DNA from: Methanobacteriota archaeon | Lineage (GTDB): Archaea; Thermoplasmatota; Poseidoniia; Poseidoniales; Poseidoniaceae | Direction: 5' to 3' | DNA length: 44,904 nucleotides | Assembly (NCBI GenBank): GCA_011522915.1 | Contig: WTIA01000044.1 | Span: forward strand, 1-44,904 | Shown here: piece by piece, positions 4,704 through 11,900 of the stretch | How positions within the stretch are numbered: position 1 is the stretch's first letter | Layout of the letters: each line of letters starts with the position of its first letter | Notes under the pieces: model-generated | The model's database searches: none | What the model was told of the DNA's origin: nothing | What the model saw: the letters and a program-made list of their open reading frames with translations, nothing else | Position numbers and translations under genes: made by a program

Positions 4704-6191
4704 TTACAAATTGTACAATTTGGAATATTTTTCTTCAACATAATTCAGGAATGGCTCTGGACTGGGTGGAGATCCTGTCGCTGATTCAATTAGTTCCGCT
4801 GGTGTCATAACCGACCCTTTTTGGTGAATCTTATCACGCAACCAATCTAGCATTCCAGACCATTCTCCTGATTTGATAATCTCGTCAATGTCGCCTAATT
4901 CCTTGGACATGGTCTGTAACAACTGTGCAGCATACAAATTCCCTAGCGTGTAGGTTGGGAAATAACCAAATGCACCCATCGACCAATGTATATCCTGAAG
5001 ACAGCCCAGTGAATCATTTGGTACTTCGATTCCAAACCACTCTTTCATCATTTGATTCCATGTTGAAGGTATATCTTCTACCTTTAATCCACCATTGAAA
5101 ATCATTTTTTCAATTTCATACCTAATCATGATATGAAGATTGTAAGTTATCTCATCGGCTTCAACTCTAATGAAATCTGGCTTGACCTCATTGGCGACTA
5201 AATCCAGAGTTTCACTACTCCAATCAGGACAGTCAGGGAATTCTTCCTTGAACCAAGGCATTGCAACATTCCAAAACGCTGCAGTTCTTCCAATTTGATT
5301 CTCCCAAAATCGTGATTGAGATTCATGAACACCTAAAGAAACAGCAGTTCCTACTGGAGAAAAACTGTATTGCCTAGGCAAGCCTTGTTCATACACTCCG
5401 TGACCTGATTCATGCATTACTGCGTAAAGGCATGAGAATGGGTCTTTTTCGTCAAATCTAGTTGTAAATCTTGTATCGTCAGGCCACAGTCCCGCACAAA
5501 ATGGATGAGTTGAGCGGTCCATTCTTCCTGCTTCAAAATCGAAGCCCATCGCTTTGCTTACTTTACTGCAAAACTTTTCTTGACCATCGGCCGGGAAGGT
5601 CATTTCATCTGGCAATCTAGGAATTTCAACATCCGAATCCATAATCTTTGCAAGAAGAGGTACTAATCGAGATTTCAGCCCAGAGAAGAGCGGGTCGTAA
5701 TCCTCGACAGTCATTCCAACCTCGTATTCATCCAAAAGTACGTCGTATGGCGTGTGCTCACATCCAAGGTAACCGATTTTCTTGTGTGTGAGATCAATCA
5801 ATTTCTGCAAATGTGGTGCGAACTGAGAAAAATCACTCTCACTGCGAGCTTTTTGCCATGCAATAAGTGCCTCGCTACGTGCTTTGGTAAATTCTGAGAC
5901 GAATTCAGTAGGCAATTTCACAGCCTCATCATACTTTCTTCTCATCTCTTTCAGATTTGCTGCAAAGTAATCATCATGCTCTGAGTTTTCCAACTCTGAA
6001 ATAATAGAACCCATACTCTGGTCAATCAATCTGCTGTGTCGTTGTGCTGCCAACCAAGCCAGAATTTCTCCTCTAGCCTTAGCACCCTTTGGTGGCATAA
6101 TCGTTTCTTGGTCCCAACCTAGATGTCCTTGGATTGCCTCAAACCTATACAGGTCTGTGACTTTGGTCATGAATTCTTCTTTGATTCCCAT
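4704..6191 (-). CDS. Carboxypeptidase Taq-type metallopeptidase (MEROPS M32)
   Basis: HESGHGVYEQG (HExxH zinc site), STHPFC, IRVEADEITYNLHIMIRYEIE and DIHWSMGAFGYFPTYTLGN are M32 hallmarks. The track start 6245 is GTG. The first ATG (MGIKEEF...) is at 6191. Confidence 0.85.
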   Translation of the reverse strand: MGIKEEFMTKVTDLYRFEAIQGHLGWDQETIMPPKGAKARGEILAWLAAQRHSRLIDQSMGSIISELENSEHDDYFAANLKEMRRKYDEAVKLPTEFVSEFTKARSEALIAWQKARSESDFSQFAPHLQKLIDLTHKKIGYLGCEHTPYDVLLDEYEVGMTVEDYDPLFSGLKSRLVPLLAKIMDSDVEIPRLPDEMTFPADGQEKFCSKVSKAMGFDFEAGRMDRSTHPFCAGLWPDDTRFTTRFDEKDPFSCLYAVMHESGHGVYEQGLPRQYSFSPVGTAVSLGVHESQSRFWENQIGRTAAFWNVAMPWFKEEFPDCPDWSSETLDLVANEVKPDFIRVEADEITYNLHIMIRYEIEKMIFNGGLKVEDIPSTWNQMMKEWFGIEVPNDSLGCLQDIHWSMGAFGYFPTYTLGNLYAAQLLQTMSKELGDIDEIIKSGEWSGMLDWLRDKIHQKGSVMTPAELIESATGSPPSPEPFLNYVEEKYSKLYNL

Positions 6192-6275
6192 ATTGCTTGC
6201 CAAGAAGCATTTCAACTTCAAGATTTCACGTGGTGTCGGGCACACTTTGAAGGCATGAACTTACTACCACCTATC

Positions 6276-7394
6276 ATGGCCTCTCCCTTTCGCCGTAAAA
6301 CTAAGGAGAGAGAGGCAAGGGCAGATAGCGACGATTTGGAACTCGAGGAAGTTGTAGAATCAGAGGAACCATTAGAGGAAAATGTTGCCGAAGTTCTAGA
6401 AAGTTTAGACCTAGAACTGGCTCTATTTGAATCTGCAAAACGTGTTACCCATACATGTATGGATATCAGAAGAGGAGAAAACGTACTGATCGTTTGCGAC
6501 CCTACTACAGGACAAATCGGTCAAGCATTACATAAAGCTGCGACCGAAAGGTCAGATAGAGTCCTACTCATTGTAATGCCAAAAGGTAGACACCATTCAG
6601 AAGAACCTCCTACTCCGGTTGCTAACCTGATGAAGCAGCAACAAATTGTAATCGCTCCAACAAAATACTCTCTCACCCATACAAGGGCGATTAGAGCCGC
6701 CTTGAAAGATGGTGCTAGAGTTGCAACGATGCCTGGTATGACAGATGATATGTTCGTTAGTGGAGGTATGACGGCTGACTTTAATCAGATCAAGAAAAGT
6801 CTGTCAGATTTTTCAAGTAAACTGAGGAGGAAAAAACTCGTTCATGTCAAGGACTCAAGAGGCACTGATGTCGAATTTGAAGTATCATGGAAAGACTGGA
6901 ATCTCGACGATAATGGAATTTGTAACAGACCAAGAATGATTACCAACCTTCCTGCAGGAAAGGCATTTGTCTTACCTAAAGAAGGGACTATGAACGGGAA
7001 AATTGTCATCGATGGCACGTGGGAATCTACCCTACTCAATGAACCTCTGGAATTAATTGTTGAAAACGGAATTGTGATCGATATCAAAGGTGATGCTACA
7101 GCAGCCCAAATTCGGCAACAATTTGGAGAGGCGGCTTCTAAATTAAGATCCAAAGATAGGGAACTGGTTTGGACAGTGGCTGAATTTGGATTCGGCATGA
7201 ACCCAAACGCACAGATTACTGGTCACGTGCTAGAAGATGAAAAGCAACTAGGAACTTGCTACTTTTCAATAGGTGACAATACAAGCATGGGAGGAAATGC
7301 TGCAGTGGGAATTCATATTCCTGGTGTAATCACAAAACCTTCTGTTTGGCTAGATGATTCACAAATCCTAGATAGTGGCAAATTTATCGAATAA
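6276..7394 (+). CDS. Aminopeptidase, M29/AmpS-like (COG2309)
   Basis: C-terminal FGFGMNPNAQITGHVLEDEKQLGTCYFSIGDN resembles the metal-binding segment of M29 aminopeptidases, and the length fits. The track ORF starts at 6123 but overlaps the divergent M32 gene. Likely starts are ATG 6255 or 6276. Acidic N-terminal extension. Confidence 0.6.
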   Translation: MASPFRRKTKEREARADSDDLELEEVVESEEPLEENVAEVLESLDLELALFESAKRVTHTCMDIRRGENVLIVCDPTTGQIGQALHKAATERSDRVLLIVMPKGRHHSEEPPTPVANLMKQQQIVIAPTKYSLTHTRAIRAALKDGARVATMPGMTDDMFVSGGMTADFNQIKKSLSDFSSKLRRKKLVHVKDSRGTDVEFEVSWKDWNLDDNGICNRPRMITNLPAGKAFVLPKEGTMNGKIVIDGTWESTLLNEPLELIVENGIVIDIKGDATAAQIRQQFGEAASKLRSKDRELVWTVAEFGFGMNPNAQITGHVLEDEKQLGTCYFSIGDNTSMGGNAAVGIHIPGVITKPSVWLDDSQILDSGKFIE

Positions 7395-8852
7395 TCATCG
7401 ATTTTGAGTTCCACAAACCGGACAGAATCGCCAATTAGGATCAACACCAATTCTGCAACCTCTGCAGTGAAGTCCTGAACGAATCGTGGGTTGCATAGGT
7501 TGTACAGGTTGATTCCAACCTTGTTGTTGCTGCTGTTGTTGAGCGAGCCATGCTTGCTGTTGTTGCTGCTGCTGTTGTTGAGCGAGCCACGCTTGCTGTT
7601 GTTGCTGTTGTTGCTGCTGTTGTTGAGCGAGCCATGCTTGCTGTTGTTGCTGCTGGTTCATTGCTTGAGGTTGAGCCTGCTGCTGTTGATTTGGGGTGCT
7701 CTTTATTCCCGCTCTGATGGGCTTGACTGGTTTAGGTAGAGCCATTTTTTCCATAACATCGGGTTGAGATTTCAATTCTTCGAGTGTGACTTCGCCGTCA
7801 CCATCAGTATCTGCTTCTGAATGTAATTCTTCAGCTTGCTCTTCTTCCATACCAGTTGCTTCTACAATCTCTTGAACGGACAAACCGCCGCTATTATCGG
7901 TGTCTGCAGCAGCGAATGCTTCCTCGATTGTAGCCTCAGGTTCTGGTTCTGGTTCCGGCTCCGGTTCGGGCTCTGGCTCGGGTTCTGGCTCAGGCTCAGG
8001 TTCGGGCTCTGGCTCAGGTTCTAGATCCGGTTCTGGAGCCATTACGGAAAATGCACCTGCAAAGGCATCATCTGTCTTTTCTGATTCCTTTCGCTCATCA
8101 ACTTCTACAACAGGCTCTGTTACTTCAGGCAGTGGTACTGGTTCAGTAGAAGGGAGAGGCACTGATGTTTCTGCCACTATTTCTGGTTCAGTGGAAGGTA
8201 AAGGAGGCGCTGGTTCAGGTGATTTTTCCGGTTCTTTTGTTTGCGGTGCTTCAACAATTGTTGGTGCAACGTATGACGTTTCAACCTCTTTGGCGGTAGC
8301 ATTGCTACTTGCTAGACTTGATACTGGAGTAACGTGGCCTGCTACGTCAAAGCAGGCTTTTATTTCGGATGCTAGTGATAGTAAAGCATCCTTATTCGCA
8401 GCGGGATTTGATAGTAAAGATTCTACTCCGTTCAAGTATTTGGTTGCCTCTCCTGGACCGCCTGTTTGCTGAGCGATTGCGAATAGTTTTAGCAATCGCA
8501 TAGGGTCTGAAATTTCCTGTAACTGTTCTGATTCAGAATCTGAAAATTGACCTTCACTAATCGCCAATGCCAACTGTTCAGGTAGAGACATTACACCCAA
8601 ATGACCAGCGACAAGGAAGTAAATTTCACCTCCCTCACAGTTCAATCGTTCACTAGCCTCTTCGAAGTCGAAATCTCCTGGCTTCAAAACTAGGTCTGAT
8701 AGAAGTGAAAAGAATTTTTCAAAAGCATCTTCTCTTGACATTTCCATCATTTGATGGAGAGCATCTGACGATTCGAATACGCCAAAATAAGCTGCTGCAT
8801 CATCCACTTCAATACCTTCTGGCATTGAAACATCTGCAACATCTTCGCTCAA
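7395..8852 (-). CDS. Cytosolic low-complexity protein: globular N-domain, P/E/T linker with PPLP, (EP)14, two EF-hands, polyQ-AWLA repeats and a C-terminal zinc ribbon
   Basis: No signal peptide. EF-hand loops DTDNSGGLSVQE and DTDGDGEVTLEE match the 12-residue consensus. Q runs of 6, 11, 9 and 7 are separated by AWLA. The C-terminus is CRGC-x13-CPVC. TTG start at 8852 has GGGGGT 6 nt upstream. The alternative ATG is at 8825. Confidence 0.75.
   Translation of the reverse strand: MSEDVADVSMPEGIEVDDAAAYFGVFESSDALHQMMEMSREDAFEKFFSLLSDLVLKPGDFDFEEASERLNCEGGEIYFLVAGHLGVMSLPEQLALAISEGQFSDSESEQLQEISDPMRLLKLFAIAQQTGGPGEATKYLNGVESLLSNPAANKDALLSLASEIKACFDVAGHVTPVSSLASSNATAKEVETSYVAPTIVEAPQTKEPEKSPEPAPPLPSTEPEIVAETSVPLPSTEPVPLPEVTEPVVEVDERKESEKTDDAFAGAFSVMAPEPDLEPEPEPEPEPEPEPEPEPEPEPEPEPEPEATIEEAFAAADTDNSGGLSVQEIVEATGMEEEQAEELHSEADTDGDGEVTLEELKSQPDVMEKMALPKPVKPIRAGIKSTPNQQQQAQPQAMNQQQQQQAWLAQQQQQQQQQQQAWLAQQQQQQQQQAWLAQQQQQQQGWNQPVQPMQPTIRSGLHCRGCRIGVDPNWRFCPVCGTQNR
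7518..7691 (-). repeat. CAG/CAA (polyGln) tract containing three 39-45 bp units (Qn-AWLA)
   Basis: The plus strand shows GAGCGAGCCA(T/C)GCTTGCTG at 7541, 7580 and 7625, embedded in TTG/CTG runs. Confidence 0.9.
7935..8039 (-). repeat. Hexanucleotide (GGYTCN)n repeat encoding (EP)14 plus flanking PEPDL
   Basis: Direct reading: ggttctggttctggttccggctccggttcgggctctggctcgggttctggctcaggctcaggttcgggctctggctcaggttc. Synonymous positions vary. Confidence 0.9.
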
Positions 8853-8911
8853 TTCTTTACCCCCGTATCTTTCCCGAATTAACTACCCTTCTTGAGTGTG
8901 ATGCCTCTAGA

Positions 8912-11900
8912 TTACTCCTTGGACAAATCGATTATTGCTCTAGATTGCGGGGCTGACCATCCAGTAGTTTGTAATTGCATCAAAATTGAACGCTCATTAA
9001 TTCCGCCCTTTAGTGCGGTCTTTGTCCAATCAACAGCCGCTGCCCTGTCTGCTAATTCCTCAGTATCGAACAGATCTGGGTCGATTACAACTTTCGCTTT
9101 GCGAACCTTGCCATCCCCACTTACTGGCTTGCGTTTTGCCACTTTTTTGCCCGCAGTAGCCGCGCCAGAAGCCGGGCCACCGCGCTGTGGGCCTCTTGGG
9201 TCTGGACCACGAGAAGGTCCTGCGCTGGATGGACCTCTACTCGGGCCACCTGGAGGACCCCTGCTAGGTCCTGCAGATGGGCCTCTACTTGCACCGCCTG
9301 GCGGCCCTCTACTTGGTCCTGAGGTTGGTCCTCTTTGTGGTGAAGCGCCTGGAGGTCCTCTGCTTGGACCTCGTCCTTGTGGACCTGATGGTGGTCCACG
9401 CTGTGGACCTCTTTGTGGGCCAGATGATGGACCTCTTGAATTTCCTCTGCCGCCGAGTATTCCTGCCATGAAATCATCTTCATCATCGTCGTCATCATCG
9501 TCGAACCAGTCATCGTCGTCATCATCGTCATCGAAATCGAAGTCTCCACCTCTCATTCTAGAAATTATGATGGATACAAGTCCCAAGAACAGTAATCCCC
9601 CACCACCTGCTGCTGCATAGAATATCATTGGGTCCATTCCGAATATAGTCTCGTCTTCTTCAGTTGGTTCTGCTTCCACCTCGATTTTACATCCACTCGG
9701 ATATACATCGGCACCGGCGGGAGTGTTAGGACAAGCGTCTTCATCATCCATAATTCCGTCATTGTCGGTATCTGATTGGTATAGAGCGCATCCAAAGTTC
9801 AGTCTCGCTTCTTCTAGATACAATTCATTGATTTCCGTTCCTGGACACAAATCAGCATCGTCTCCATCTTGGTTATCTCCCCAGCCGTCTAAATCAAGAT
9901 CATCCCATTGTGTTGGATTGTCTGGGAATTTATCATCTCCCAACAAATCGCTATATCCGTCGCCATCTCTATCTAAGCAACCGTATCTTAACTTCTCTGT
10001 AGAATTACCCCACACATCAGGGCAGGCATCAGAAAAGTTTGCTCCAGGTAACTGAGAGTCTCCGTACCCATCTCCATCTCTATCTTGCCACTGGGTTACA
10101 TCGAATGGGAACGCATCACCTGTGTGAGTATCATTTAGAGCATCATAGGAATAGTTTCCTTTGAATCCGTCGCCATCTACATCTTCATCCAACGATGATT
10201 CATCGATACAACCATTTGCTAATACCTTGATTGGAGGCGGAGTTCCTGGGCATTCGTCTAGCAAATCATTGACCCCGTCAGTATCGGTGTCTTTTTGTGA
10301 GAGGTTGCATCCATTGTCATCGATTGTCAATTCTGGGTCAGAATCTGGACAATCATCATCTGGATCATTGACTCCATCTCCGTCCGAATCCACCTCTTTC
10401 TGCGCTGCTGAACAGCCATCATTGTCAACTGCGGTATCGATTGGAGTATCATCGCACTTGTCATCTCCATTAGAGACGCCATCTAAGTCATCATCAATTT
10501 GGAAATCTGAGCACCCAGCTTCGTTTACAGACTGGCCTTGCTGTGTGTTAGGACAATCATCCTCGCCGTCAGGTATGCCGTCTTGGTCTTGGTCCTCTTC
10601 CTGAGATTCAATAGGACATCCAATTCCAGGTTCTCCGTTGGGTTTAGTACCGTTTACCACGCCAAAGTCGTATGGGCAAGCGTCAGGGTTGTTTCCTTGC
10701 TGATTGTCACCCCATCCATCACCGTCGCTATCTGCTACTTGGGTTGAATCTGCAGGGAAGGCATCTGTTGAGTCCTCTCGACCGTCTCCATCAGTATCCT
10801 GACAGCCGTAATACGGAACGATAGTTTCACCTACTGAAGAGGTTGTTGAATTACCCCAAACATCAGGACAATTATCGAGATTTAATCCGCCCCTATTGGA
10901 ACCGTTATCCAATTCTGTCCAATTATTGGGATATCCGTCGCTATCGGTGTCATACGCCGCTGCAGGTATGGTTGGGAATTTATCTGGAGTTGTAGCTCCT
11001 TCAGACGAGTTATCCCCAAATCCGTCCCCGTCTGAGTCCGCCCATTGTGTTGGGTCTTGAGGCCACCAATCCGCACCGTCTTCCTCTGTCCAAGTGTACT
11101 GAGTTCCCCATTCATTATCTTCATACCAAGGGTCGGATGAACCGTCTGAGTCTGCATCTGGGCAGCCTTGCCGGTCTCTCCAGGAATATCCTTCAACGAA
11201 CCAACACCAGTCTCCATCTATAGGGTCATCTGGGTTGTCTCCATATCCGTCACCGTCGGAATCTGCATGTTGAACAGCATTGTATGGGAAGTAGTCTCCT
11301 GCTCTCTGAATAGATTCTAGTTCAACATTACAACAATCTGGTCCATGGTTATCGCCGAAAGTATCGAGGTCGGAATCCAAAGCCTGTTTCCAGTTTTCTG
11401 GGAATCTATCTCCTTTAATCGGGTCATCAGTCCAGCCGTCTTGGTCATCATCAGAACAACCTAATTCTCCCCACCAAGAGGTCCCATCGTCGTCATTACA
11501 GTCATCGTTGGCATCAGACCAGCCGTCCTCATCATAATCATCGCAGCCAAATCTGTCCAAGTTTGATTCACCATAATCAGATGGGCATGCATCTGCATGT
11601 GGCCCTGATGGATTGTCTCCAAATCCATCAGAGTCTGTGTCTTCCCATTGATTTCCAATGCTGGGCAGTGCATCGTGCGAATCTGGAATTAAATCCCTAT
11701 CCTCATCGCTTACGATTCTCATGGCGCTAAAATCGTTGGTAGATGATTGTGAATAAGCAATAACCAAATCGCCATCAACCAATTCCATACCAGCCATGTG
11801 TTCGGTGATTATTGACACGAATTTTGTTGAGGTTGTGATTCCTGAACCAGTAAAGGAACCCGTAGTCCAAACCAAATTATTGGAACCCAAATCAGAATTT

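Follow-up and report, generated by a model that had tools for sequence, protein, structure and literature searches.

A Marine Group II archaeal protein family joins a new N-terminal domain to an EF-hand pair, a tryptophan-spaced glutamine-rich tract and a zinc ribbon

Here, we report that a contig of 44,904 nt from a Poseidoniaceae archaeon (WTIA01000044.1 of assembly GCA_011522915.1, analyzed over its whole length and hereafter called the window) encodes a 485-amino-acid (aa) protein that belongs to a conserved protein family of Marine Group II (MGII) archaea. The protein combines an N-terminal domain without known relatives at the sequence or fold level, a disordered linker that carries short motifs, an acidic Glu/Pro spacer, a pair of EF hands, a Gln-rich tract with evenly spaced Trp and a C-terminal zinc ribbon. 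What is new is the domain and the architecture, which are confined to a single order; EF hands and low-complexity scaffolds are known in kind. An earlier note, made by reading the DNA letters alone, had described six elements in this protein, and when we searched for them by script this description turned out to be essentially right. We interpret the protein as a genuine MGII-specific cytoplasmic scaffold or hub that would be calcium-responsive and multivalent, and that may serve as an adaptor for the tail of a giant adhesin encoded upstream. The descriptive part of this reading is near certain. Taken as a whole it is tentative, and the link to the adhesin, drawn from gene order, is possible but doubtful.

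The family was delineated by scanning one genome per GTDB species, which returned relatives in 272 genomes; we examined the best 80 loci, and all 80 belong to the Poseidoniales, family Poseidoniaceae. They include the original MGII assembly (CM001443.1), single-cell genomes and long-read metagenome-assembled genomes (MAGs). Residue conservation was read from an alignment of 42 full-length orthologues that are 47-86% identical to the window protein, while tracts and EF hands were counted in 54 intact orthologues, a set that for the Gln/Trp tract reaches down to ~45-50% identity. The earlier note had considered that the repeats might be a strain-specific slippage artefact, or that the region might be an assembly artefact. 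Neither holds, because the gene is intact in ~54-60 of the 80 loci, where it codes for 458-592 aa and keeps the full architecture: the same modules are present in 54 independent orthologues, which refutes strain-specific slippage, and the gene is reproduced in independent assemblies, including the single-cell genomes and long-read MAGs, which refutes an assembly artefact.

Many database copies of the gene are nevertheless truncated, frameshifted or interrupted by runs of N exactly in the EP and Gln tracts, as an assembly artefact or a decaying pseudogene would be. A homology search with the N-terminal domain returned 93 metagenomic proteins, mostly of 200-330 aa, and by inspection the short ones end inside the low-complexity region at contig ends, in translated Nextera adapter or at frameshifts. 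Several public homologues, namely P0013, P0038, P0040, P0047, P0054, P0055 and P0065, end in CLLYTSPSPRD or LSLIHI, the translation of untrimmed adapter, and those gene models therefore terminate artefactually in or near the low-complexity tract. Frameshifts break the gene in all three nanopore 'pilon' contigs (L001, L002 and L003): in two of them a second open reading frame (ORF) holds the whole C-terminal half, with EF hands, Gln/Trp tract and ribbon, and in the third a longer out-of-frame ORF runs from within the N-terminal domain through the linker and the DAF motif to the ribbon. Runs of N fall exactly in the EP and Gln tracts of scaffolds L034, L060 and L064, so the exact repeat numbers of any short-read assembly call for caution. 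Nanopore indels and short-read contig breaks account for the truncations; beyond the tracts the downstream modules show strong conservation, and dozens of independent MAGs, single-cell genomes and long-read assemblies contain the gene intact and at full length. The artefact or pseudogene explanation retains next to no probability and is effectively already refuted. Together, frameshift splits and N-gaps lead automated annotation to fragment the family systematically. NCBI records label its members 'hypothetical protein', and our literature searches turned up no specific work on the family or on integrin-like proteins of MGII.

The TTG start of the gene is preceded, 7 nt upstream, by the Shine-Dalgarno (SD)-like sequence GGGGGT, close relatives have TTG or ATG aligned at this position, and orthologue N termini read MS[DE]DV, matching the chosen start. 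The product is strongly acidic (90 Asp and Glu vs 26 Lys and Arg, counted by script). We found no transmembrane segment or signal sequence in it, the maximum hydropathy in 19-residue windows (KD19) being 1.36, which agrees with the cytosolic protein that the earlier note had proposed. Among all long ORFs of the window, runs of at least five Gln or at least four EP units occur in this one only.

The N-terminal domain is a new domain. AlphaFold2 (AF2), run on an alignment of 19 sequences, predicts with confidence an all-alpha fold of ten helices, with a predicted local distance difference test (pLDDT) score of 82 and a predicted template modeling (pTM) score of 0.78, and supports a fold up to about residue 190, the extent that had been guessed for a globular region. 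The domain matches nothing in Pfam or NCBIfam; Foldseek finds no neighbor in the PDB (best E 0.94, TM-score at most 0.28) and nothing among the viral structures of BFVD (best E about 1). An exhaustive profile search over 1.84 billion cluster representatives returned only 122, all of the same family, in keeping with the earlier view that the architecture is unlike that of known families. Many residues of the domain, including the motif CEGGEIY.L..GH, are invariant in the 42 orthologues.

Two candidate identities for the N-terminal domain were rejected. The only hits of a sequence-profile search of the PDB with this domain were TAL effectors (3ugm at E 2.8e-7 over the whole sequence), but no single stretch passed and Foldseek gave no TAL match; we regard the resemblance as compositional, centered on one helix-loop-helix (AIAQQTGGPGE...). 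A catalytic role for the Cys and His of CEGGEIY..L..GH was rejected because distant members carry Val in place of the Cys and Pro in place of the His.

The EF-hand pair places the protein in the EF-hand superfamily at the domain level. Both 12-residue loops, DTDNSGGLSVQE (317-328) and DTDGDGEVTLEE (348-359), had been called canonical and were recovered by script and by Pfam above cutoff (EF-hand_1, PF00036, 37.7 bits against a cutoff of 25.4; EF-hand_7, PF13499, 33.8 against 30). In each loop, positions 1, 3, 5 and 12 hold the oxygen ligands, position 6 is Gly and position 8 is hydrophobic; the two loops are paired and flanked by helices. The ortholog survey that the earlier note had called for found ligand positions 1, 3, 5 and 12 of both loops kept in 54/54 intact orthologues. 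AF2 models the segment as two successive helix-loop-helix units (pLDDT 83-90), and its PDB matches include lobes of calmodulin and centrin (E 1e-8 to 1e-12). With these lobes it shares the paired canonical loops and the helix-loop-helix geometry, although the linker between its hands is ~5 residues shorter than that of calmodulin in the PDB alignment. By analogy with single calmodulin-type lobes, the pair probably binds calcium and thereby changes a binding surface. The protein is not calmodulin proper: calmodulin distributes four EF hands over two lobes, one at each end of a central helix, in ~150 aa, whereas the window protein has one pair within 485 aa that are mostly disordered. Two NCBIfam families were also set aside, XopAW, a type III secretion system calcium-binding effector (NF041410; 31.3 bits against a cutoff of 120), and lanmodulin (NCBIfam; score far below cutoff).

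C-terminal to the EF pair lies the Gln-rich tract. Its Gln runs of 6, 11, 9 and 7 residues split by AWLA, as the earlier note had read them, span aa 400-444; AWLA occurs three times and GW closes the series. For statistics we took the region between the LPxPxxPxR motif and the ribbon in 55 sequences, the window protein and the 54 orthologues. This region is 73 aa long in the window protein, with 58% Gln, one charged residue and four Trp; the medians over the set are 74 aa, 53% Gln, 15% Pro, about one charged residue and four Trp. Trp is virtually the sole aromatic residue, occurring three to six times per tract, mostly 7-14 residues apart and in the contexts GWN, QWQ, AWL and AWN; W446 is invariant in the 42-sequence alignment. 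In the window protein, Trp is confined to this tract and the ribbon. The longest Gln run varies from 2 to 31 residues across orthologues. What the family conserves is thus a Gln-rich tract with evenly spaced Trp and not the length of the polyglutamine runs, and a variable run length beside constant composition, charge and Trp spacing argues that selection acts on these and not on polyglutamine length. In the stickers-and-spacers model of prion-like domains, reversible multivalent association is driven by aromatic residues placed at even intervals in low-complexity sequence that is polar and uncharged.

Judged by composition and not by PLAAC, the tract is prion-like: it is polar, uncharged and Gln-rich, extends over at least ~60 aa and has interspersed aromatic residues. 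Candidate Q/N-rich prion domains have been found in ~0.1% of archaeal proteins, and the candidates that proved amyloid- and prion-positive in experiments were distinguished by P-Q stretches close to aromatic residues (bioRxiv 10.1101/2020.07.20.212902). Uncharged Gln-rich sequence, P-Q stretches and interspersed aromatics are common to those candidates and to the tract of the window family; in this tract, however, the aromatic residue is Trp and not Tyr or Phe, Asn is scarce, and the window tract is predicted to be helical; the likeness is one of composition.

That helix raises the possibility, anticipated by the earlier note, of a coiled coil through which the protein would oligomerize. For the window protein AF2 predicts a single continuous helix over aa 402-442 (pLDDT 69-80), and each AWLA places helix-promoting Leu and Ala directly N-terminal of a Gln run; yet a monomer helix predicted in polyglutamine is not evidence for a coiled coil, and the Trp spacings of 15, 13 and 11 residues in the window protein break a heptad register. 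In orthologues the Trp spacing is spread evenly over 7-14 residues, neither 7 nor 14 being favored, and their Pro content (15% in the median, 15-35% in most, as in QQPQQQGWNQQ) is incompatible with a conserved helix. The helix can therefore apply to the window clade only, a conserved coiled coil is improbable, and even a clade-specific coiled coil is very unlikely.

A second alternative holds that the EP and Gln tracts are neutral, slippage-prone flexible spacers, with function residing only in the N-terminal domain, the EF pair, the motifs and the ribbon and with no part for condensate-type behavior. Pro/Gln-rich linkers are known from FtsK, ZipA and TonB and provide a model. EP and Gln run lengths vary greatly, as those of weakly constrained spacers would: strict EP arrays have 3-16 units among the closest relatives and 0-27 overall. 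At the DNA level, tandem periodicity is seen at 39/45 nt in the Q-AWLA repeats and at 6-36 nt in EP, and distant members have Pro/Ala/Thr-rich or Q/A-rich linkers instead, or no tract. On the other side, codons are mixed in both tracts (EP: GAA 7/GAG 7 and CCA 5/CCT 4/CCC 3/CCG 2; Gln: CAA 21/CAG 13), so that neither is fresh pure-repeat slippage. Near-zero charge, ~50% Gln and Trp as the only aromatic, in three to six copies at the spacing given above, are kept across all 55 sequences, with preferred GWN, QWQ and AWL contexts, and in one divergent member an N/Q tract stands in its place, with Phe as the periodic residue. Weighing both sides, we regard purely neutral spacers as rather unlikely.

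The middle of the protein fits a scaffold with folded ends. In the full-length AF2 model, built from a 12-sequence alignment, residues 194-306 are disordered (pLDDT below 50). The Pro/Glu/Thr linker carries the PPLP and the two PLPSTEP copies that had been reported for it, all recovered by script; among orthologues it is otherwise variable and keeps two or three [SV]VPLP motifs, with P223, P234 and P242 nearly invariant in 42 sequences. It leads into the motif RKESEKTDDAFAGAF (DAFxGAF), of which A263, F264, G266, A267 and F268 are invariant in 42 sequences. AF2 models a low-confidence helix over this motif, making it a candidate amphipathic binding helix. Between the EF pair and the Gln/Trp tract stands another short motif, L-P-x-P-x-x-P-x-R, with L372, P373, P375 and P378 invariant and R380 nearly so in the 42-orthologue alignment and invariant in a second alignment (A4).

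Between DAFxGAF and the EF pair, the spacer conserves its charge, with sequence and length left variable: in 56 orthologues it is 36-91 aa long, with medians of 32% Asp and Glu and 21% Pro and a net charge of -9 to -34. Fourteen uninterrupted EP dipeptides were counted correctly in the window protein, at aa 278-305. An (EP)n array should adopt an extended, polyproline-II-like conformation and thus make a polyanionic rod. Such uninterrupted EP arrays also occur in the proline-rich region of TonB and in trypanosome procyclins, and Pfam gives a weak Trypan_PARP hit to the window protein (E 0.007); the likeness is compositional and not homologous, the window context is cytoplasmic, and the (Lys-Pro)n segment that is paired with the EP array in TonB has no counterpart here.

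The C-terminal ribbon is a two-CxxC-knuckle zinc ribbon, with CRGC at aa 463 and CPVC at aa 477 as located by script. Of the earlier description the two CxxC pairs stand, and the spacing between them is 10 residues, not 13. The four Cys, a Gly and a Trp are invariant across 19 diverse members, and among the 42 orthologues so are P-T-I-x-S-G, the four Cys, G469, D471 and W474. AF2 predicts short strands at moderate pLDDT (~67). With generic four-Cys ribbons such as DZR and Zn_Ribbon_1 it shares the pair of CxxC knuckles, here separated by 10 residues, and the short beta elements of the AF2 model, but the family stands apart by its PTIRSG...IG.D..W signature and by scores below cutoff (DZR, PF12773, 17.7 vs 27.3; Zn_Ribbon_1, PF13240, 15.1 vs 25). 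A PDB sequence search with the ribbon found no relative.

The ribbon suggests a further alternative, a regulatory or nucleic-acid-associated protein that works independently of any adhesin: ribbon and N-terminal domain would bind DNA, RNA or the transcription or translation machinery, the acidic and Gln-rich regions would be activation or recruitment regions, and the EF hands would confer calcium dependence. The four-Cys ribbon is indeed the most conserved module besides the N-terminal domain, the family persists where the giant neighbor is absent, and a conserved element upstream of this gene suggests regulation of its own. Yet Pfam and NCBIfam detect no helix-turn-helix or other nucleic-acid-binding domain, the net charge is strongly negative, the ribbon is of a generic type that stays below Pfam cutoffs, and neither Foldseek against the PDB for the N-terminal domain nor the PDB sequence search for the ribbon gives a structural neighbor. 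We consider this alternative somewhat improbable, and retain the cytoplasmic scaffold as the preferred interpretation.

Divergent full-length members (P0114-P0127) consist of the N-terminal domain, a long Pro/Ala/Thr-rich disordered linker and the C-terminal ribbon. Their linker bears a DAF-like motif, found even in these EF-less members, and a P-K/R-x-P motif; EF hands and Gln/Trp tract are absent. Other members are intermediate: at the position of the Gln/Trp tract, P0104, P0106 and P0107 have Q/A repeats and P0095 the N/Q tract with periodic Phe mentioned above, and P0101 has EF hands and no Gln tract. Comparison of these sequences defines a family core made of N-terminal domain, disordered linker with short motifs and zinc ribbon. 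Because distant members keep only those parts, the EF pair and the Gln/Trp tract are a clade-specific insert, and the acidic rod, EF pair and Gln/Trp tract are an elaboration, in the window lineage, of an older N-domain-linker-ribbon protein. The label 'eukaryote-like' that the protein had been given describes a resemblance only; in the searches made, the family is confined to Poseidoniales-type archaea.

Table 1. Positions of the 485-aa protein, its modules and the adjoining upstream features in the window
Feature	Residues (aa)	Window position	Strand	Basis
Whole coding sequence, 485 aa	1-485	7395..8852	minus	ORF listing; TTG start, TGA stop
N-terminal all-alpha domain	1-190	8283..8852	minus	AF2; invariant CEGGEIY.L..GH
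Disordered Pro/Glu/Thr linker	191-256	8085..8282	minus	PPLPSTEP, VPLPSTEP, VPLP; pLDDT below 50
Motif RKESEKTDDAFAGAF	257-271	8040..8084	minus	Conservation and AF2
Polyanionic Glu/Pro spacer with (EP)14	272-306	7935..8039	minus	Script; codon and charge counts
EF-hand pair	307-365	7758..7934	minus	Pfam, PDB matches, AF2, ligand conservation
L-P-x-P-x-x-P-x-R motif (LPKPVKPIR)	372-380	7713..7739	minus	Alignment conservation
Uncharged Gln-rich tract	386-450	7503..7697	minus	Q6-AWLA-Q11-AWLA-Q9-AWLA-Q7-GW
PTIRSG motif and zinc ribbon CRGC-x10-CPVC	455-485	7398..7490	minus	Cys conservation
Intergenic gap, 59 nt		8853..8911	minus	SD-like site and conserved CATCAnnCTCAAGAA element (8889-8903)
Giant FG-GAP/TSP3 type-I membrane protein, 2,108 aa		8912..15238	minus	Pfam

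Immediately upstream lies the gene of a giant FG-GAP/TSP3 membrane protein, resembling integrins, whose sequence indicates a signal or anchor at the N terminus, a C-terminal membrane segment with RMRGG after it, and a cytoplasmic tail of ~210 aa. The tail (~8915-9553, minus strand) contains a polyAsp block with Trp and Phe, (RGPxxGP)n repeats and a basic KKVAKRK patch, and it ends in an unannotated domain of ~55 aa (ER.ILMQLQ.TGW.APQSRAI) that is conserved across all loci. Searching with the 75-aa C-terminal tail domain of the giant protein, as a test of co-distribution, yielded 24 short fragments and nothing beyond the giant's own family. The two genes lie on the same strand with the 59-nt gap that had been noted, and across the 80 loci essentially every one with enough flank has the giant gene with its tail 57-90 nt upstream on the same strand, the exceptions being frameshifted models. 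The pairing also holds in L084 and L088, both divergent lineages without EF hands. Most loci have SD-like sequences ahead of the start, and a run of five or more T occurs in only 1/76 gaps, which is compatible with co-transcription of the giant and the 485-aa genes. No conserved RNA fold was found in the intergenic gap.

Several observations weigh against a functional link between the two proteins, which rests on gene adjacency. The block TPK - giant - 485-aa gene - M29/NicX peptidase is syntenic as a whole, so the adjacency may reflect general conservation of gene order and not function. Two divergent lineages, L086 (8001-9131) and L087 (8001-9578), have glycosyltransferases, TPK and the family gene with no giant gene between TPK and the latter; L086 also has M29 downstream of the family gene, and M32, and the family proteins of both loci are without EF hands and Gln/Trp tract. 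A short contig, L085, has no giant gene within 432 nt upstream. The family can therefore persist without an adjacent adhesin. Finally, 54/76 orthologous gaps carry a linear element, CATCAnnCTCAAGAA(G/C), ~35-45 nt ahead of the start codon, even at ~50% protein identity, and CATCAnnCTCAAGAA has one exact match in the window; this element may serve the gene as a promoter or regulator site of its own. Because of the whole-block synteny, the loci L085-L087 and the element proper to this gene, functional coupling to the adhesin is plausible but not established.

Other features around the gene were noted in passing. Three long antisense ORFs on the plus strand (7900-8472, 7491-7739 and 8892-9620) are rich in GS, L and GP, respectively, and lie opposite the EP, Gln and RGP tracts. 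They arise as a side effect of coding for low complexity and are not genes. Downstream, the stop codon TAA (7392-7394) of a convergent M29/NicX-type peptidase gene abuts the TGA (7395-7397, minus strand) of the 485-aa gene with zero spacer, so that the 3' ends of both genes must overlap or terminate within the opposite gene. The stops also abut in L001, and in L086 the two genes overlap by 29 nt. The mechanically called peptidase ORF (6123-7394, plus strand) has 423 aa against 348-397 aa called in orthologues and overlaps an M32 carboxypeptidase ORF (4704-6245, minus strand); its true start is probably further downstream.

Taken together, conserved EF ligands, conserved motifs, a conserved tract composition and a disordered middle between folded ends support the scaffold interpretation. 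According to the model that we propose, the N-terminal domain and the zinc ribbon, folded ends joined by a long disordered region, would dock the protein to partners with the help of the short motifs. Calcium on the EF pair would switch a conformation or a binding surface, the stiff polyanionic Glu/Pro segment would act as an extended spacer, as in the EP arrays of TonB and procyclin, and the Gln/Trp tract, with its three to six Trp 'stickers', would give weak multivalent self- or hetero-association. The most plausible docking site would be the cytoplasmic tail of the upstream integrin-like adhesin, in which case the 485-aa protein would couple or cluster the giant surface protein from inside.

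The comparison with integrins and their adaptors talin and kindlin is one of functional analogy only: the giant neighbor is a type-I membrane protein with FG-GAP (integrin-alpha-type) and calcium-binding TSP3 repeats and a conserved tail, but the window family is set apart by its existence without an adjacent giant gene in some lineages. An adaptor of talin or kindlin type by fold was rejected, as the N-terminal domain gives no FERM or PTB hit in Pfam and no PDB match with E < 0.9; the talin rod appears in Foldseek only at E 3.7 and a TM-score of 0.14. A bolder version of the model sees an MGII integrin-like adhesion module in which the 485-aa protein would be a calcium-switchable adaptor whose EP rod and Trp/Gln tract form heterotypic, condensate-like clusters with the Arg-rich tails of the giant receptor. 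We think this quite unlikely; if true, MGII archaea would have a prokaryotic counterpart to the clustering of receptors or focal adhesions, one that uses the disordered-region grammar of eukaryotes.

Marine Group II archaea rank with the most abundant archaea of the plankton and are uncultured, so that most of their lineage-specific genes lack an assigned function. The family described here is a conserved, lineage-defining MGII protein that joins a calmodulin-like EF lobe, a spaced-aromatic low-complexity tract and conserved short linear motifs, traits mostly discussed in eukaryotes, to a novel domain. If it cooperates with the giant protein, the two would offer a tractable recombinant system with which to ask whether archaea organize surface adhesins through intracellular calcium signaling and multivalent disordered-region assembly. 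Even without the adhesin link, the family shows that selection can preserve Gln-rich, Trp-spaced tracts in a prokaryote over deep divergence.

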